DNA from: an uncultured Thermoplasmatales archaeon
GTDB taxonomy: Archaea > Thermoplasmatota > E2 > DHVEG-1
Direction: 5' to 3'
DNA length: 33,719 nt
Assembly: GCA_964517155.1 (NCBI GenBank)
Contig: CAZFAZ010000034.1
Location: 1-33,719, forward strand
The translations under genes were made by a program, and so were the position numbers. Below, one piece after another: positions 1 to 31,357 of this stretch. Positions within the stretch are counted from its first letter, which is position 1, and each line of letters starts with the position of its first letter. Under the pieces are notes generated by a model. The model had not been told where the DNA came from and ran no database searches. It was given only the letters and a program-made list of their open reading frames with translations.

Positions 1-99
1 AGTCTAAACAGCGGGATCAGTTGTCCAGACTGCCTGCAGGTAAGACGCATAGTAGAATGCCGTTTAAAACAGAAAGGGGCTTACGGCCTACACCCAGCA
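1..99 (+). ncRNA. rnpB: RNase P RNA, archaeal type A-like, 3' portion (5' part lies outside the window)
   Basis: AGTAGAAT (51-58) matches CR-IV AGNNNNAU. ACAGAAAGGGGCTTA (69-83) matches CR-V ACNNRANNNNGNNUA exactly. Hairpin AGTCT..ACAGC-GGGATCA-GTTGT..AGACT (1-31) fits P16/P17, GGTAA fits L15, and there is no P18 (archaeal). Exact 3' end uncertain. Confidence 0.9.
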
Positions 100-258
100 T
101 AAATTCAGCTACACCCCTTCAACTCGGATTTTTATATCTGTTGTTTGTGCTTGGCTCAAAAGTTAGCCCTAGCCATATTTTTTTACCCATAACCTATTAT
201 TTCATTTTTCCTTTTTTGCTGCTGATTTTTTTTCAACGTTATTACAACACCCTCCACA

Positions 259-372
259 ATTTTATGTAAAAGATGTTGAGGCTATCTTGGTCATGTTTTT
301 GATGACGGGCCATTGCCACCTGGTAAACGTTTTTGTATTAATTCTGTTGATCTTCATTTAAAGAAAAAATAA
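259..372 (+). pseudogene. msrB: 3' remnant of peptide-methionine (R)-S-oxide reductase MsrB with internal stop
   Basis: Manual translation [36 protein letters not shown] matches the MsrB C-terminal signature CxxCxxHLGHVFxDGPxPTGxRYCINS. In-frame TGA at 277-279; N-terminal two-thirds absent. Confidence 0.85.
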
Positions 373-416
373 ATAAAGTTACAGTAATTTAACCAATAAT
401 TATTAAGGTGTAAAAA

Positions 417-770
417 ATGCCACATGTTGTTCTAAACGGAAATGTAAATCTTGATGATATATTCACTAAATTCAGGGGTGTATTGATTCGTAATGAAAAT
501 GGTGTTCTTAAAACTGATAATATTTATATTAGCCGTGATAAAACTTCTATAATTGTAGAGTCATTAGCTATTGAAAAGGATGCTAAAAATAGTTTTTTAG
601 GTATGATCAGCCATAGGGATGATGGCGTGGTTGTAAGGATATATCCTGGAAGTGAAGTTGAAAAAACTGTAGGCGTTAAAAAAATATTATCCGAAATATC
701 AAGACAATTTCTAGAATTATTTCCTCAATTAAAAATTGGAGAAACGAATCTCTTAGAGTATCTAAAATAA
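417..770 (+). CDS. hypothetical protein (117 aa)
   Basis: Clean ORF with AAGGTG SD-like site upstream and globular composition; family not recognised. Confidence 0.75.
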   Translation: MPHVVLNGNVNLDDIFTKFRGVLIRNENGVLKTDNIYISRDKTSIIVESLAIEKDAKNSFLGMISHRDDGVVVRIYPGSEVEKTVGVKKILSEISRQFLELFPQLKIGETNLLEYLK

Positions 771-852
771 CGGGAATTGTTAAACTAAATGCATAAATGA
801 AATATATATAAAAAGTATTCAGTAAGTTGATTAATTAAAGGAGGTTAAAGTT

Positions 853-1770
853 ATGGTTGAGAAAAAAATTCAGTGTCCAAGTTGTAAAAATCAATTTATG
901 GTTAAAGGAAAACCTTCGGAAAAAATATATGTAACCTGCCCAAAATGTAAAACGTATGGGTCGTTTACTTTTCCGGCAGGGAAATGCGATCCAAATAAAG
1001 TAGAATGTTTCTCGGATCTTGGAGATGTCCGTTTCAAGAAATTAAGGATATTTAATGGAATAATGGGAATTATTCATATGATTCAGGGTTTTTTAATGCT
1101 CATACTAAGTAACACATTTGCCCTACCTTTGACATATACTCGCCCTGAATATAATGCAGTTACAGAAACAATTTCGCCCGTATCAGAAACCTTTTTTAAT
1201 ATACAAATTGGGCCACTTGTAGCTCTGTTTCTTTTTATGTCAGCGATAGCTCATATTCTATTGTCTACCGTGTTATATAAATGGTATGTTAAAAACCTTA
1301 AAAAACATATGAATCCTGCCCGATGGTATGAATACTCTTTCAGTGCATCGTTAATGATTTTTATTATCGGTATGCTTGTTACGATATATGATTTTGGGAC
1401 ATTGCTTGCTTTATTTACCCTTACTGCAGTTATGAATCTTATGGGTCTAGTGATGGAGATTCATAATCAAACGACGACAAAAACAAATTGGACATCTTAT
1501 AATATCGGGTGTATAGCTGGTTTTATTCCGTGGGTTGTCATCTTCATTCCGCTTGTAACTGCGGAATCTGTTCCTGATTTTGTTATTGCAATTTTTATTA
1601 CCATCGCAGTGTTTTTCAATTTGTTTGCAATCAATATGTACTTACAGTATAAGAAGATAGGAAAATGGAAAGATTATCTTTATGGTGAACGAATGTATGT
1701 CATTCTGAGTCTCGTTGCAAAATCAGCATTAGCCTGGCAAGTATTTGCAGGAACTTTGCGACCAATGTAG
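853..1770 (+). CDS. heR: heliorhodopsin with N-terminal CxxC-x17-CxxC zinc-ribbon extension
   Basis: HeR motifs: LRIFN..HMIQG (TM1 His), AIAHIL (TM2 His), NPARWYEYSFSASLM (TM3 counterion Glu), YxYGERMYVILSLVAKSALAWQVF (retinal Lys in SLVAK). The first ~60 aa contain CPSC-x17-CPKC. GGAGG SD near 840-845. Confidence 0.95.
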   Translation: MVEKKIQCPSCKNQFMVKGKPSEKIYVTCPKCKTYGSFTFPAGKCDPNKVECFSDLGDVRFKKLRIFNGIMGIIHMIQGFLMLILSNTFALPLTYTRPEYNAVTETISPVSETFFNIQIGPLVALFLFMSAIAHILLSTVLYKWYVKNLKKHMNPARWYEYSFSASLMIFIIGMLVTIYDFGTLLALFTLTAVMNLMGLVMEIHNQTTTKTNWTSYNIGCIAGFIPWVVIFIPLVTAESVPDFVIAIFITIAVFFNLFAINMYLQYKKIGKWKDYLYGERMYVILSLVAKSALAWQVFAGTLRPM

Positions 1771-1816
1771 ATTAAGGAAAAAAACTGCAGACTTTATGAC
1801 GGTGAGTTACAAATCC

Positions 1817-1886
1817 CTTCTCCTTCACTAAAAATTATTTTTCAGTATATGTACTCAGGAATTAACACATATGCTTACACCCAGCA
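1817..1886 (+). repeat. degenerate rnpB-3'-end composite repeat (R1)
   Basis: TACACCCAGCA (1876-1886) is identical to 89-99 and is preceded by GCT. CTTCTCCTTCACTAAAAAT at 1817 resembles the upstream box of R2-R4 at similar spacing (59 nt). Confidence 0.5.
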
Positions 1887-1937
1887 AACTTAAATTTTAT
1901 CACAAATGTTGTTGTATTTTGTAGTTTTTCATCGAAA

Positions 1938-1978
1938 TTTATAAATATTAGTTAATACCATATATTTATTATTTAATA
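1938..1978 (+). promoter_or_regulatory. TATA box followed by two TATTA-NN-TAATA palindromes (putative autoregulatory operator)
   Basis: TTTATAAA at 1938-1945; TATTAGTTAATA at 1946-1957 and TATTATTTAATA at 1967-1978, 21 bp apart. The AT-rich context weakens significance. Confidence 0.4.
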
Positions 1979-1994
1979 ACAATTGGTGATTAAT

Positions 1995-2273
1995 ATGTCA
2001 AAATCAATTCAAGAATATAAGCTTGAACATTCTCCAACTCTTAATACTGTTTTAATGGTAGAAGAAACTTTAAAAAATATGAACGAAAGTGTAATTACTA
2101 TTGCCAAATTAAAAAAGATACTCCCCAAACAAGTAAATCATAATACCTTAAAGATTATCCTTTTATATTTAGAATATAGTAATAAAATCGCAGTGACATT
2201 AAAAGGAATAACTTGGATACATAATACCAATCCACAACTACGTAAAGCAATTTCAAAAGGTCTTGAATTATGA
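1995..2273 (+). CDS. small winged-helix-like protein, putative antitoxin/regulator
   Basis: ATG at 1995 after GGTGA SD (ORF track starts at 1983). HSPTLNTVLMVEETL...LKIILLYLEYSNKI...ITWIHN pattern. Its stop overlaps the next ATG (ATGA, 2270-2273). Confidence 0.65.
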   Translation: MSKSIQEYKLEHSPTLNTVLMVEETLKNMNESVITIAKLKKILPKQVNHNTLKIILLYLEYSNKIAVTLKGITWIHNTNPQLRKAISKGLEL

Positions 2274-2565
2274 AAAAAGTACGAGTTATTCTTTCACCAG
2301 AAGCAGAAAAAGTATATAAGCATCTGAATGAAGAAGCACCCAGATCAAAAACAGATCAAACAATACTTAAAGCGATTAATAAAAAAGTGGAATATATAAA
2401 GACAAATATGGTGTATCAAACTTATTTAGAATAGAACTTCCAAATTATTGGAGAATGCTTTATACATTAACAGACGGTGAAACAAATATTGAGATTATTG
2501 CGTTTGTTCTTGATTTAATAGATCATCCAACTTATAATAAAAAGTTTGGATATAAAACAAAATAA
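2270..2565 (+). pseudogene. frameshifted/internally deleted RelE/ParE-like toxin gene
   Basis: First frame 2270-2434: MKKVRVILSPEAEKVYKHLNEEAPRSKTDQTILKAINKKVEYIK...*. The -1 frame 2395-2565: YKDKYGVSNLFRIELPNYWRMLYTLTDGETNIEIIAFVLDLIDHPTYNKKFGYKTK*. The V-I-L-S-P-E-A start, WRMLY and DH..Y end fit a RelE-like fold. Confidence 0.7.
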
Positions 2566-2582
2566 GCTTAAATTATCTGCCA

Positions 2583-2655
2583 CTTCTGTCTTCAAAAAAT
2601 GTAAAAAATAAGGAGAAAAAGCTGGTCTAAAGGGGCTTACGGCCTACACCCAACA
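2583..2655 (+). repeat. rnpB-3'-end composite repeat (R2): upstream arm + 24-bp perfect rnpB copy
   Basis: AAAGGGGCTTACGGCCTACACCCA at 2629-2652 is identical to 73-96. It is preceded by CTTCTGTCTTCAAAAAATGTAAAAAATAAGGAGAAAAAGCTGGTCT. Confidence 0.92.
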
Positions 2656-2666
2656 ACATTGTTTAA

Positions 2667-4067
2667 CTATAAATTATTAATTGGATGTTTTGCTGGATGC
2701 CAATCAAAGTTTATATATGGTAATCCTGGTATTATTTTTGGAAGAACTCTAGGTCTATTCCAGTAGTTGTTATTCCACCGGTTACTTTTTGAATTCAGTA
2801 ATAATATTTGTAAAATGTTTTTTTGTAGATTATTGTTTTGAAAGATATTGTTATCTGATTGTTTTAATTGTATTGCTATATCGCAATTCTTTATTGTGTT
2901 GTTTTCTATTGTATTATTATAAGAATTGTATAAAAGGTTAAGACCAGTTTTGCTATTAATTATTATATTGTTTAAAATATGATTATCATGTTGATCTGCA
3001 TCAGAAAATGTTGCTATATGGATTCCTATAAAAATATTGTCTTCTAAAGTATTATTATAGAAAAGATTATACGAGCAAGCAGTAACTGCTGAAAGACCAA
3101 ACATATTATCTGCCACATAGTTATTTCTAACGATATTATGATCAGAGTGATAATCAAGACAGGCTCCATGTAAATTATTAATCAATATATTATTTTGAAC
3201 GATGTTATAATCTGAGTTAAAAAGTATGACTTCTCCATCTGTATCTAAAACTGTTATATTTTCTATTGTGCTATTGTCACAATATGCTAATATCACTGAA
3301 AAATCTGTATTTGAAAGATATAAATCTCTAATTGTTATATTTGAACAATTAACAGCAATAACCTGTCCTGCATCAACTGGCACTTCAAAATTATTATTAT
3401 TTTTATAATAATATAATGGTTTCCCATTAACAGTATTATTATTAATATCGTGTAGGAAATCTTGTTTTGTCAAACTAAGTAATTTTTGATATTGGCCAAG
3501 AAGAATTCCATCTCCAATAAATGAATTATTATTAATCGTTGCATTATAACAAGATGCCATAACTGTTAAACCCATAATATTATTTACAAATCTATTTCCC
3601 ATTATCGTTATATTTGAAGCATATATTCTCAACCCTGATAAATCCCAAATTAGATCTTCACTTAGTGCATTTGTAAAAGTAAAACCTTGAATTGTTACAT
3701 CTGATGCAGAAATATTCATACCGTCAAGGGATTTTTTATTAGCATCAATTACTGTGTTATACTTATTTTCGCCAATAATTGACAATCCTTGTGTTTTAAT
3801 TATAATATTTTCTTGGTATAGTCCTGATCTGACAAATATTGTTTCACCAGGAGTTGCATTGTCGATTCCTTCTTGAATTGTTAAGTAATCATCTGGAATT
3901 ATAATATCTGCACTTATAATATTTAGATTTGTTTTTTCATCATTTTTTATTTCAATGATGGATGCAGTACTTGAGGTCAATGAGAATGCAAAGATAAAAA
4001 TTATCAAAATAGATATTGGACTTTTATAAATCCTATTCATATTTATCACATAATTAATATTAAACAT
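2667..4067 (-). CDS. secreted NosD/CASH (parallel beta-helix) domain protein
   Basis: Signal-peptide-like N-terminus (start may be the ATG at 4040), IPDDYLTIQEGIDNA..G.TIFV.SGLYQENI, Asn-rich PbH1 repeats, NTVNGKPLYYY..AGQVIAVNCSN, C-terminal NNYW..DWHPAKHP. Confidence 0.85.
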   Translation of the reverse strand: MFNINYVINMNRIYKSPISILIIFIFAFSLTSSTASIIEIKNDEKTNLNIISADIIIPDDYLTIQEGIDNATPGETIFVRSGLYQENIIIKTQGLSIIGENKYNTVIDANKKSLDGMNISASDVTIQGFTFTNALSEDLIWDLSGLRIYASNITIMGNRFVNNIMGLTVMASCYNATINNNSFIGDGILLGQYQKLLSLTKQDFLHDINNNTVNGKPLYYYKNNNNFEVPVDAGQVIAVNCSNITIRDLYLSNTDFSVILAYCDNSTIENITVLDTDGEVILFNSDYNIVQNNILINNLHGACLDYHSDHNIVRNNYVADNMFGLSAVTACSYNLFYNNTLEDNIFIGIHIATFSDADQHDNHILNNIIINSKTGLNLLYNSYNNTIENNTIKNCDIAIQLKQSDNNIFQNNNLQKNILQILLLNSKSNRWNNNYWNRPRVLPKIIPGLPYINFDWHPAKHPINNL

Positions 4068-4088
4068 AACATATTTATAGTTATGCTG

Positions 4089-4161
4089 CTTCTGTCTTTA
4101 AAAAATTGAAAAAATCTTGTTTTTCTTCTGTTGCAAAAGGGTTTATGGCCTACACCCAACA
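4089..4161 (+). repeat. rnpB-3'-end composite repeat (R3)
   Basis: AAAAGGGTTTATGGCCTACACCCA at 4135-4158 matches 73-96 at 21/24. CTTCTGTCTTTAAAAAA at 4089 has the same 62-nt spacing to TACACCC as in R2. Confidence 0.88.
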
Positions 4162-5490
4162 ATTAATATTATATGGTTTTTCTACAGGATTTTTATCTAA
4201 TAATAAATAGCTTGGAAAATTTATTTTCTTAGGGCTATGAAGATATGAATCATATAGTGATCTTTGCCAACAAATAATGATTTTTGGAAATATTTTTAAT
4301 AGTTTATGATTCAGACCAATCCATTTATTCCAATAGTTGCTATCCCATACTGTATGGCGGCATTTACCCCATACTTTTACTGTTTCTATTCCACTTGAAT
4401 AGATATTATTTTTCGAAAAGACATTCCAATCAGAGTCGTCTAATTGTATACTGAATGCTTTTTTTTCTGCGTTTGGATGAAAAATACTTGAGTGGAAAAT
4501 ATTAGATGTGAATATGTTATATCTTGATTCCTGTTCTATGGTTATCATTGTAAAAGTATTATTTGTAAAATAATTATAATCAGAAAAACTCAGCCACATA
4601 GAACAAGATGTATTTGTAAAAGTGTTATTTCTAAAAATATTATAATTTGCATATTCTGTCCAGAAACCTTGAAGACTTCCGTTAATTTTATTATTTTCAA
4701 CAATGTTATAATCAGAATAAAATAAATGAATAGTATCTGTTACGTTATTTATTACCAGATTCGATATTTTGCAATAACTACAGTTTACAAGTATTACCTG
4801 CCCTGCATTTTTTAAAACATCAACGTGTTTTTTATTTTTAATATAAACTATTGGTTTTCCATTGGCAGTATTAGACGTATCAATATCATGTATGTAATAA
4901 GAAAGATTTGATTTAAAACCATCAAGGTAATCAAGATAATAAATTAGCAAGTTACAATCAAAGAATTGATTATATCTCAAAGTACAATTTGTACTTTCTA
5001 AGATACACATTCCACATATATTTATTGGTTTTTCTGTGTTATGACTATTTATGAAAATATTATCATTTATTATAACATTAGAAGTTTTATTTATCTCAAG
5101 TAATGAATTATACCAATAATCAAATTTATATGTATTATTTTTCAGAGTGAAACCCGTAAATACAACTTCATCAGCATATATTTGAATGCCTTTATAATTT
5201 CCTTGTACATCAATTATAGTTGAATTTTTATCTTCGCCTATTAAATTGATTTTTTTATCAACAATAATATTGTGTTCATAATATGTACCAGTATAGACAT
5301 ATACCGTATCGCCATTAATTGCATTGTCTATTGCATCCTGAATCGTTGTATAATTTTTAGATCCAGTTCCACCCACATATAGTATATTTTCTGATGAATT
5401 TGTTTGTATTTTTTTACTGGAGGCAAAAAAACCGCTAAAACATAAAGATAACATTAAACATATTACCAGCAATGACACGCATTTTTTCAT
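4150..5490 (-). CDS. secreted NosD/CASH (parallel beta-helix) domain protein
   Basis: Signal peptide, ILYVGGTGSKNYTTIQDAIDNA.NGDTVYVY.GTYYE, DTSNTANGKPIVY..AGQVILVNCS, C-terminal SNYW..DKNPVEKPYNI. The stop codon lies inside repeat R3. Confidence 0.87.
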   Translation of the reverse strand: MKKCVSLLVICLMLSLCFSGFFASSKKIQTNSSENILYVGGTGSKNYTTIQDAIDNAINGDTVYVYTGTYYEHNIIVDKKINLIGEDKNSTIIDVQGNYKGIQIYADEVVFTGFTLKNNTYKFDYWYNSLLEINKTSNVIINDNIFINSHNTEKPINICGMCILESTNCTLRYNQFFDCNLLIYYLDYLDGFKSNLSYYIHDIDTSNTANGKPIVYIKNKKHVDVLKNAGQVILVNCSYCKISNLVINNVTDTIHLFYSDYNIVENNKINGSLQGFWTEYANYNIFRNNTFTNTSCSMWLSFSDYNYFTNNTFTMITIEQESRYNIFTSNIFHSSIFHPNAEKKAFSIQLDDSDWNVFSKNNIYSSGIETVKVWGKCRHTVWDSNYWNKWIGLNHKLLKIFPKIIICWQRSLYDSYLHSPKKINFPSYLLLDKNPVEKPYNINCWV

Positions 5491-5578
5491 AGTATAATCA
5501 CAAAAATTTTATAATATATATTTTAGTAGATATTTATTAAGTTTTTCTTTAATGTGGCATTTTAAAAAATAACCTGAG

Positions 5579-5647
5579 CTTCTGTCTTCAAAAATAGTAA
5601 AAAAATAATGAGAAAATGAAGGTCTAATGCTTACGACCTACAACGAG
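5579..5647 (+). repeat. rnpB-3'-end composite repeat (R4)
   Basis: Arm CTTCTGTCTTCAAAAATAGTAAAAAAATAATGAGAAAATGAAGGTCTAA is highly similar to the R2 arm. GCTTACGACCTACAACGAG (5629-5647) matches rnpB 79-97 at 16/19. Confidence 0.85.
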
Positions 5648-5669
5648 AAAAATATTAATTATTTTTTCT

Positions 5670-5864
5670 TTATATCATTGTTACTTCTACTGCTTTTAAA
5701 CCTTTAACTGTGTTTTCTTTATGATATTCAATATTATCTCCTTTATTTAGAAATATCGTCCAAAAAGGAATATCGCTTTTATGAATAAAGATGTCTTTGC
5801 CATCTTCACCTTCTATAAAGCCATAACCTTGTTTAATATCATACCATTTAACTTTTCCTTTCAT
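5670..5864 (-). CDS. csp: cold-shock domain protein
   Basis: MKGKVKWYD..QGYGFI (RNP1) and DIFIHKSDI (RNP2); GAGGT SD upstream. Confidence 0.92.
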   Translation of the reverse strand: MKGKVKWYDIKQGYGFIEGEDGKDIFIHKSDIPFWTIFLNKGDNIEYHKENTVKGLKAVEVTMI

Positions 5865-5921
5865 AATTATATACCTCTTTTGATTAAAAAAACTGTTAAT
5901 TTTTAAAAACTAAAAAATTTC

Positions 5922-6092
5922 TTAAAAAGAATTCTTGCAATTTTTACAAATTTTATCAGATTCTGAATGTTCTTTTTTTATAAAATCATTACAACTATCA
6001 CTTTCAAATACTGGAATCATCTTAGTTTTACATCTAATTATCTTCTTTTTTTTAATTGGTGTTCTGTTGTTTGTTTTTCTTCGCCTATTCAT
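5922..6092 (-). CDS. small basic Cys4 protein (56 aa, below the ORF-track cutoff)
   Basis: Manual translation MNRRRKTNNRTPIKKKKIIRCKTKMIPVFESDSCNDFIKKEHSESDKICKNCKNSF*. GAAGGT SD-like site upstream; co-oriented between two small genes. Confidence 0.6.
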   Translation of the reverse strand: MNRRRKTNNRTPIKKKKIIRCKTKMIPVFESDSCNDFIKKEHSESDKICKNCKNSF

Positions 6093-6292
6093 TTTTAAAT
6101 ACCTTCGTTTATCAGTTTACCGATAAAAAAACAAAATTGATTTCGTAAATTTATCTAAAAAGATACCAAATCTTTAATTTTTTATTTAATTATCACAAGC
6201 ACTACTACTTTTAACCTTATATAGTTTTACCTAAAAAAAGAAATAGAAAGATTTTGTAAAAAAGTTTAAAATTATTCAAACTTTACTTTTTT

Positions 6293-6463
6293 CTAAAATC
6301 TTTTTGGTTTATGCTTTTGATAGCAATCCCTACAATAAACTGGTCTAGTACCATCTGGTTTGAACGGAACTTCGGTTTCTTTTCCACATTCTGCACAAAT
6401 TACTTTGTGCATTTCTCTTGGAGGTCTATTAAAGCCTCCTCTATTTCTATTTTCTCTATACAT
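6293..6463 (-). CDS. CxxC-x17-CxxC zinc-binding domain protein
   Basis: REMHKVICAECGKETEVPFKPDGTRPVYCRDCY is the typical CxxC-x17-CxxC signature, with an RGG-like N-terminus. The ATG at 6463 is preferred over the TTG at 6499. Confidence 0.9.
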   Translation of the reverse strand: MYRENRNRGGFNRPPREMHKVICAECGKETEVPFKPDGTRPVYCRDCYQKHKPKRF

Positions 6464-6550
6464 ATAACTTATTTTCCTTTTTTTGATTTTAACTAACAAT
6501 AGAAGATTAATATTTAATATTATCCTTTAGATTAAGTTTAATTTTTTGCC

Positions 6551-31272: not shown

Positions 31273-31357
31273 TGCAGGGGGAGGGATTTGAACCCGCGAA
31301 CCTCTTCAGGAATAGATCTTGAGTCTATCGCCGTAGACCAGGCTTGGCTACCCCTGC
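31273..31357 (-). tRNA. tRNA-Leu(CAA), intronless, CCA not encoded
   Basis: The minus strand reads GCAGGGGTAGCCAAGCCTGGTCTACGGCGATAGACTCAAGATCTATTCCTGAAGAGGTTCGCGGGTTCAAATCCCTCCCCCTGCA: acceptor GCAGGGG/CCCCTGC, anticodon arm ATAGA-CTCAAGA-TCTAT, long variable arm, discriminator A. Confidence 0.95.

Follow-up and report, generated by a model that had tools for sequence, protein, structure and literature searches.

The DNA studied here, referred to as the window, comprises the 33,719 nucleotides of contig CAZFAZ010000034.1 of an uncultured Thermoplasmatales archaeon (GenBank assembly GCA_964517155.1). It begins in the 3' part of rnpB, the gene of RNase P RNA, and downstream of it copies of the rnpB end recur in an array that extends up to position 5649. 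An earlier reading of the letters alone, below called the original prediction, had proposed that this array consists of integron-like gene cassettes anchored at rnpB. We characterized the array within its genome (G000; 1.59 Mb, 90.8% complete), to which also contigs C12, C51, C52 and C85 belong, and compared it with 60 relatives, such that 61 genomes were covered. All genomes compared were metagenome bins.

In agreement with the original prediction the window starts with the rnpB end. Using Infernal, positions 1-95 aligned to positions 194-288 of the RNaseP_arch model (RF00373) with 58.3 bits and an E-value of 1e-14, the match being truncated at its 5' side. The score was below the gathering score of 84 because the gene is cut by the window start. 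The 5' part of rnpB was found on C51 (1-270, 151 bits with the same model), and the end of C51 and the start of the window share an 82-nt overlap inside rnpB (window 1-82, C51 1-82), such that the window begins inside the gene. A second rnpB variant of lower coverage (~40x versus ~90-100x) has the stretch 1-82 in common in runs X1 and X2, and it probably caused the assembly break inside rnpB. Logan contigs of two possible source runs reproduced positions 70-2446 and 2628-6500 each as a single piece at ~80-95x. From rnpB to the conserved chromosomal flank the following features were found:

1-95, plus strand: 3' part of rnpB (model positions 194-288, Infernal); 5' part on C51
73-99, plus strand: putative attachment core (attB/attL side), i.e. 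the final 24 nt of rnpB and 3 further nt; homology to G002 stops at 99
259-348, plus strand: msrB stump (30 codons), sharing 70% identity with residues 92-121 of an MsrB that is intact on C12
417-770, plus strand: open reading frame of 117 aa, no family match
853-1770, plus strand: zinc-ribbon heliorhodopsin of 305 aa, probably displaced native DNA and not a cassette gene
1817-1886, plus strand: possible composite att repeat in a decayed state, with a box-like 11-mer (1817-1827) and a core lacking 7 bases (1873-1886); left edge of the toxin-antitoxin (TA) cassette; a sequence reading, not found by nhmmer
1995-2273, plus strand: antitoxin-like gene of the TA cassette, intact, 93% amino acid identity to the G011 copy
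2270-2562, plus strand: partner toxin gene, broken, with halves in different frames; weakly ParE/RelE-like in the G011 copy
2570-2657, plus strand: composite att repeat 1, arm with box and a core matching rnpB at 24/24 positions (nhmmer)
2667-4067, minus strand: NosD/beta-helix protein with a signal-like N-terminus (cassette 2)
4079-4162, plus strand: composite att repeat 2, core 21/24, the core variant being the rnpB allele of G011
4150-5490, minus strand: cassette 3, encoding a further NosD-like protein with 31% identity to that of cassette 2
5569-5649, plus strand: decayed composite att repeat 3, closing the array on its distal side (nhmmer)
5670-5864, minus strand: cold-shock protein gene, first gene of the conserved chromosomal flank

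The repeat had been described as a unit of 24 nt. Searching this 24-mer with up to 3 mismatches recovered positions 73-96, 2629-2652 (0 mismatches) and 4135-4158 (3 mismatches), while no match was obtained in any of 100 shuffled sequences. The true unit was however found to be ~85 nt long. It consists of an arm of ~60 nt that does not belong to rnpB and a subsequent core of ~27 nt that does, and the arm precedes the core in every copy of G000 other than rnpB itself. Two shorter pieces that had been reported fall into place within this larger unit: the one at 5629-5647 belongs to the decayed composite copy at 5569-5649 (nhmmer, E 4.8e-12), and the 11-nt piece at 1876-1886 is part of the core at 1873-1886 from which 7 internal bases are missing. 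The homology of the TA cassette to a copy from another genus begins exactly at 1873. As had been noted, the copies sit at gene boundaries.

Running an nhmmer profile built from seven copies over the whole of G000 returned exactly seven composite copies at three loci plus the rnpB end itself, with the next-best matches at E >2. The repeat is thus not scattered over the genome. It is also not confined to the rnpB locus: in addition to the three copies in the window (2570-2657, 4079-4162 and 5569-5649) there are three on C52 (7793-7877, 9085-9169 and 10584-10668) and one on C12 (5005-5093).

The anatomy of the site was read from 43 composite copies. Conserved in them are a box, an A-rich tract and the ~27-nt core, the core to at least 90% at most positions. 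The box is an 11-nt motif, CTTCTGTCTTC. Allowing 2 mismatches, the arm of 29 of the 43 copies has it, and it precedes the core anchor by exactly 58 nt in 22 of these 29. The stretch from the A-tract to the core occurs in two or three sequence types. The arm may be a protein-binding site. Core variants within arrays equal rnpB alleles of other genera, e.g. the TTATGG form at 4135-4158, which is the allele of G011; this fits an import of the core together with its cassette. No family of Rfam was matched by the repeat, and folding six composite repeats provided no hairpin of the attC type (z-scores from +1.61 to -1.79).

We then asked how the repeat is distributed among the relatives, using an 88-nt composite copy as query and E <=0.01 as threshold. 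Matches were obtained in 38 of the 61 genomes, including 31 of the 36 other genomes of the same family; where there was a single match it was usually the rnpB end. Rows of several matches occurred in G018 (contig C11), G011 (C57 and C65), G030 (C168), G027, G010, G023 (C14) and G015 (C2). The row in G018 comprises seven copies (nhmmer), which are up to 93% identical to the window copy despite the different genus. rnpB itself was located in 47 of the 61 genomes, 26 of them from the family, and in eight of these 26 (G000, G011, G021, G022, G023, G026, G030 and G032) at least one composite copy follows rnpB downstream on its contig. The contigs of G012, G024, G027 and G028 run out a few hundred bases or less from the rnpB end. 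No array is present at rnpB in the complete genomes G004 and G009, and the single composite copy of G009 lies far away. The target gene stays intact upon insertion: beside an insert rnpB has its full length (195 bits, positions 1-288 of 288).

Between two repeats on the same strand we counted 40 blocks in the examined loci of the relatives. Four of them carry an integrase, 35 carry none and measure 0.5-4.3 kb, and one of 9.5 kb, which lies between a solo copy and an array, was set aside. With the three units of the window, integrase-less blocks flanked by att sites number 35 in relatives plus 3. According to our reading of Pfam matches, 17 of the 35 are TA-like (ParE/RelE with DUF7557, HicAB, PIN, MNT-HEPN), where three of the 17 rest on a weak ParE match or on homology to it and two show HicB only. 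The remaining ones encode AAA_14/DUF4143 ATPases, NosD/beta-helix proteins, a peptidase, UbiA enzymes, MarR-like regulators and proteins of unknown type. In G000 itself, the repeats on C52 bracket a pair of HEPN and nucleotidyltransferase genes and a pair of AbiEi-like and AbiEii genes, and the copy on C12 abuts a DUF2683 and ParE/RelE pair. On C12 an AAA_14/DUF4143 ATPase gene (971-2137), a cassette-type gene in other arrays, lies beside this ParE pair (C12 62-5093, locus L003). No further repeats were detected in C12 62-5093, and the stretch may be an old, decayed array.

Individual units recur in other genera. The TA unit of the window (1873-2657) matches G011 contig C57 with 81% identity over 843 nt and G010 with 79%, while the MNT-HEPN unit of C52 matches the rnpB-anchored array on G011 contig C65 with 82%. 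One ParE unit is common to G030, G010 and G011 (83-85%), a stretch of two units is common to G018 and G011 (87%), and a ParE unit is present twice in G027, in different arrays and with 94.6% identity. In an alignment of the ParE unit from three genomes the homology extends from one core to the next, and the arms upstream differ. The unit is therefore composed of core, cassette DNA, its own arm and a core, as expected for recombination within the core. Cassettes from different genera are 81-88% identical compared to 73-78% for heliorhodopsin, which with this one comparator gene is a hint at lateral exchange. Overall, of the four blocks that had been proposed as cassettes, blocks 2-4 are discrete and one of them recurs in other genera with other neighbours, while block 1 is doubtful (see below). 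The toxin of block 2, which had been called RelE-like, is weakly ParE/RelE-like in its G011 copy; in the window its gene is broken, the matches to residues 1-49 and to residues 62-117 of the G011 homologue lying in different frames of 2270-2562.

The repeats of the two NosD cassettes might be taken for leftovers of a tandem gene duplication. A recent duplication of this kind was ruled out, since the proteins share only 31% identity while the repeats are near-identical. In G003 and G016 a NosD-like gene abuts the rnpB core, as NosD-like genes abut cores in the window. For the second NosD-like gene of the window the att core provides the stop and the two codons before it (4150-4158, minus strand), and the NosD-like genes of G003 (L067, 11132-12340) and G016 (L068, 2045-3340) likewise end at the rnpB core.

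An integrase encoded outside the array had been guessed, and a conserved tyrosine recombinase was indeed found beside the 3' end of rnpB in six relatives. The first block behind rnpB encodes, in G030 and G011, a protein of 334-340 aa with Phage_integrase and SAM-like N-terminal domains (Pfam). Searching the 61 genomes with the G030 protein gave matches at E <=1e-20 in 13 genomes. Identities of at least 50% were reached in seven relatives, and in six of these seven the match lies on the rnpB contig. The six integrases come from six genera. Their 3' ends are 82-1706 nt away from the rnpB 3' end, and all of them point towards rnpB:

G030: distance ~85 nt
G023: distance ~85 nt
G036: distance 105 nt; the match is interrupted by a stop
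G002: distance 82 nt; genus of the window, the integrase being reduced to its C-terminal 190 residues
G021: distance 912 nt, with a TA pair in between
G011: distance 1706 nt, with one gene in between

Near the integrase of the seventh genome, G001, no rnpB and no repeat were found. Phage_integrase scored 85-113 bits in five of the integrase proteins (Pfam), and the G030 and G011 proteins are 69% identical. R133, K157, H226, R229, H252 and Y261 are invariant in an alignment of five sequences and presumably form the catalytic set. The nearest known proteins are archaeal XerA recombinases (model NF040815, 181 bits versus a cut-off of 220; Thermoplasma XerA, PDB 5HXY, E 5e-38). Scores with the integron-integrase models remained far below their cut-offs (TIGR02249, 78 bits versus 265; NF011946, 27.9 versus 435).

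The integrase-bearing blocks extend over 3.1-6.5 kb from the rnpB core to a composite repeat. Copies of the box follow the rnpB core at 10-90 nt in the same orientation (G023, G002, G030), and a small DUF7557/VapB-like open reading frame accompanies the integrase in G030, G011 and G036. Beyond the integrase module the cargo differs. Neither replication nor virion genes were recognised in these elements using Pfam and PHROGs; the matches were a helicase-like AlbA_2 protein and an HNH nuclease. IMG/VR held no close relative of the integrase, its 6 matches being 25-30% identical, and a scan of the genome collection with one integrase gave 4 loci. Within window positions 1-6000 no integrase remnant was found (best tblastn E 1.9). 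The three tyrosine recombinases that G000 does possess are 20-25% identical to the element integrase.

The position of the array is embedded in a conserved chromosomal frame. In most relatives rnpB is preceded by an aminotransferase and a CARDB-like protein gene and followed by csp, a small zinc-finger protein gene and a second aminotransferase gene at a distance of ~3 to 14 kb, as measured where one contig spans both sides. The content between rnpB and the distal flank, whose comparison across relatives had been called for, differs in every relative examined. Comparing G000 with the same-genus G002, the sequences are 94% identical up to window position 99 and unrelated beyond. There is a second cassette site, which in G023, G015 and G009 is flanked by hycI and a trxB-like gene (L043, 8831-10995; L047, 9059-11229; L050, 10491-10551). 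In G023 and G015 it is headed by an arm-less copy of the rnpB tail of ~37 nt, and in G009 it consists of a single composite copy. At the same locus of G000 a copy of the rnpB tail is absent at up to 5 mismatches.

These data suggest the following picture. The final ~27 nt of rnpB would serve as chromosomal attachment site for small elements that encode a XerA-like tyrosine integrase. Integration inside the core would rebuild the end of rnpB and leave a second core at the far end of the insert, which is preceded by the element's own arm of ~60 nt with the 11-nt box at fixed spacing and the A-rich tract. Strand exchange would take place within the core. Repeated integration would stack units head to tail. 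Most units, having 0.5-4.3 kb, one or two genes and no integrase, would represent non-autonomous cassettes for which a full element provides the integrase in trans, and the cassettes are probably mobile in their own right. The array in the window would then comprise three units, one with a TA pair whose toxin is broken and two with NosD-like surface proteins, with displaced native DNA in front. As no integrase of the family was found in G000, the array appears to be a passive store at present. We consider it likely that such rnpB-targeting integrase elements, together with stacked non-autonomous cassettes, exist in this uncultured family of Thermoplasmata.

A number of observations weigh against this picture. 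Arrays also occur away from rnpB (C52, C12, contig C11 of G018 and the hycI-trxB site), such that secondary sites or rearrangements are needed. For G000 no match to the rnpB-linked integrase family was obtained at E 1e-20 in a genome that is 90.8% complete. G018, with its array of seven copies and an assembly of 20 contigs at 94% completeness, has no PF00589 match at E <=1e-5 and no XerA, and in G027, G015, G010 and G032 the tyrosine recombinases are encoded on contigs other than those of the arrays. With the integrase missing or unlinked, arrays are thus mostly found in genomes without the enzyme. Integrase-less cassettes have the box on the arm side only and none after the upstream core. In the assembled Logan contigs of four runs no circle, empty site or excision junction was found; the eight joints they gave, with sides stated as 20-46 nt or as 25 nt or less, were not reliable and included none of the core-to-core excision form. 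Finally, the Logan contigs break inside the core at 2628-2632, such that the join between the TA cassette and the first NosD cassette rests on the original assembly.

The scarcity of the enzyme would follow if every unit had arrived at rnpB as a full integrase element and lost its integrase module to a later deletion, the small units being immobile scars. Full elements of 3.1-6.5 kb do exist at rnpB, the integrase is missing from most array genomes, and decay is visible in the truncated integrase of G002, the stop within the G036 match, the broken toxin and the decayed distal repeats of the window. Independent deletions would however not produce the same edges each time, while the same minimal core-to-core units were found in several genera with other neighbours and in another order, and one ParE unit resides in two arrays of one genome at 94.6% identity. 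Together with the higher identity of cassettes between genera than of heliorhodopsin (a single comparator gene), this makes accretion followed by decay an unlikely account of the arrays. Alternatively, the XerA that resolves the host chromosome could move the cassettes, similar to integrative mobile elements exploiting Xer (IMEX), and the element integrase would be dispensable. The element integrase is XerA-like, with 5HXY as its best solved relative, and G000 carries a XerA-like gene on C85 (171 bits). The core has about the size of a Xer site, for which 11-bp arms and a 6-bp spacer are given in PMC2958812. The core is nonetheless rnpB sequence and not a dif site, the XerA-like protein of G000 is only 23% identical to the element integrase, and G018 holds an array while no tyrosine recombinase was detectable. 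We therefore regard a host XerA as quite improbable.

Two further explanations leave out such an integrase altogether or replace it by another. The repeat could be a regulatory or RNA element (terminator, promoter, small RNA) or a miniature inverted-repeat transposable element that is independent of any recombinase, its likeness to rnpB being incidental or acting at the RNA level. Copies always lie between genes, and the arm has T-runs on its minus strand that could act as terminators for genes read from this strand, NosD among them. An element of this kind is hard to reconcile with seven copies at only three loci in 1.59 Mb, all of them in arrays, with the lack of a fold and of an Rfam match, with the integrase linkage in six genomes and with cassette homology that breaks at the core, and we consider it very improbable. 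Least credible of all is a true integron with an IntI integrase and folded attC sites. Arrays rich in TA pairs are familiar from integrons, and the integrase belongs to the wider Xer/IntI branch and has a Phage_int_SAM_4 domain. Yet the integrase lies inside the first block and is convergent with rnpB, and the repeats are conserved in sequence and not in structure. Because an attC-like fold is absent and the integrase scores 78 bits against the IntI cut-off of 265, the array is not an integron, and the original prediction does not hold in this strict sense.

A wider version of the rnpB-integrase picture would see here a capture system that resembles integrons and arose independently of them. 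A XerA-derived integrase would dock at the rnpB end, or at copies of this end in other places, and insert and excise cassettes of one or two genes via double-stranded, sequence-defined sites of ~85 nt, each cassette bringing its own site with box, A-tract and core. The resulting stores of TA, defence-like and surface-protein genes would be exchanged between genera. We put this forward tentatively, as a version that is somewhat less likely than not.

Block 1 differs from the other units. At its right end there is only what looks like a decayed repeat (1817-1886). Homologues of its heliorhodopsin were found in 22 of the 61 genomes. Among the relatives heliorhodopsin lies near rnpB only in G018, there without the repeat, and elsewhere on the chromosome in the others, including the same-genus G002. 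Within 1.5 kb of 22 other heliorhodopsin loci no repeat match was found at E <0.5, and none of these loci has the 117-aa open reading frame. These repeat-free loci speak against heliorhodopsin as a cassette gene. In G034 and G033 msrB or msrA adjoins heliorhodopsin. Block 1 is thus probably native DNA that was brought next to rnpB by rearrangement or capture and not a clean cassette. The N-terminal zinc ribbon of the heliorhodopsin (853-975) is 46% identical, in an alignment of 41 residues, to the N-terminus of an ATPase of an ABC transporter, which is encoded beside the cassette array of C52 (12016-13083). A native place of heliorhodopsin beside this zinc-ribbon ABC exporter was considered and not seen within 1.5 kb in relatives.

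Compared to known systems, the arrays share with chromosomal integrons and with clusters of attC sites lacking integron-integrases (CALINs) a series of promoter-carrying cassettes of one or two genes, each ending in a recombination site, with many TA cassettes, many arrays without a nearby integrase and repeats that are alike within a lineage. The repeats of Vibrio integrons, for example, are highly alike within a lineage. Integrons of Archaea are the subject of bioRxiv 10.1101/2022.02.06.479319. The arrays differ in lacking an IntI signature and an attC fold, in being anchored at the end of an RNA gene and not at attI beside intI, and in carrying the integrase inside a mobile block. Cis-mobilizable elements (CIMEs) of streptococci are integrase-less, att-flanked units that occur in tandem with islands related to integrative and conjugative elements. 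The cassettes resemble them in lacking an integrase, in being flanked by att sites and in their tandem arrangement with a related element that has an integrase and presumably mobilises them. CIMEs however are bacterial, tied to conjugative elements and larger, and are not known to build long rows of minimal cassettes.

Elements and islands at tRNA and tmRNA 3' ends, including archaeal tandem integration, have in common with the present case a tyrosine recombinase, a stable RNA gene whose 3' end is targeted and rebuilt, a far border marked by a displaced copy of this end, and tandem stacking at one site (review PMC8371274). Here, by contrast, the target is rnpB, the integrase is short and XerA-like, and most units have 0.5-2 kb and no integrase. 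By term search, neither 'RNase P' nor 'rnpB' appears in this 2021 review of archaeal tyrosine recombinases, and the literature searched on rnpB or RNase P RNA as integration site contained no description of it as an archaeal attachment site. In the available text on the tycheposons of Prochlorococcus (bioRxiv 10.1101/2020.12.28.424599) a tyrosine recombinase sits at one end, cargo is called a 'plug-in cassette', and 7 tRNA/tmRNA targets appear with 0 occurrences of rnpB or RNase P. Within that text, tycheposons are alike in being cargo elements with a tyrosine recombinase, in using few RNA-gene targets and in forming islands behind an RNA gene. They are bacterial and target tRNA/tmRNA genes instead of rnpB, many carry replication genes, of which none were recognised here, and the same text describes no repeat such as the 85-nt composite one.

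If the rnpB-integrase picture is true, rnpB would join the short list of RNA genes that serve as archaeal integration sites, and there would be a second way of building cassette arrays that is mechanistically distinct from integrons. The rnpB site would be a place of quick turnover of accessory genes such as TA pairs, AAA ATPases and NosD-like surface proteins, and an array at this position would account for the frequent assembly breaks at rnpB in these archaea. A compact integrase with a site of ~27 nt could possibly become a genetic tool for a group that lacks genetics.

Unrelated to the array, a tRNA gene with a long variable arm lies at window positions 31273-31357 on the minus strand (Rfam tRNA, 49 bits).

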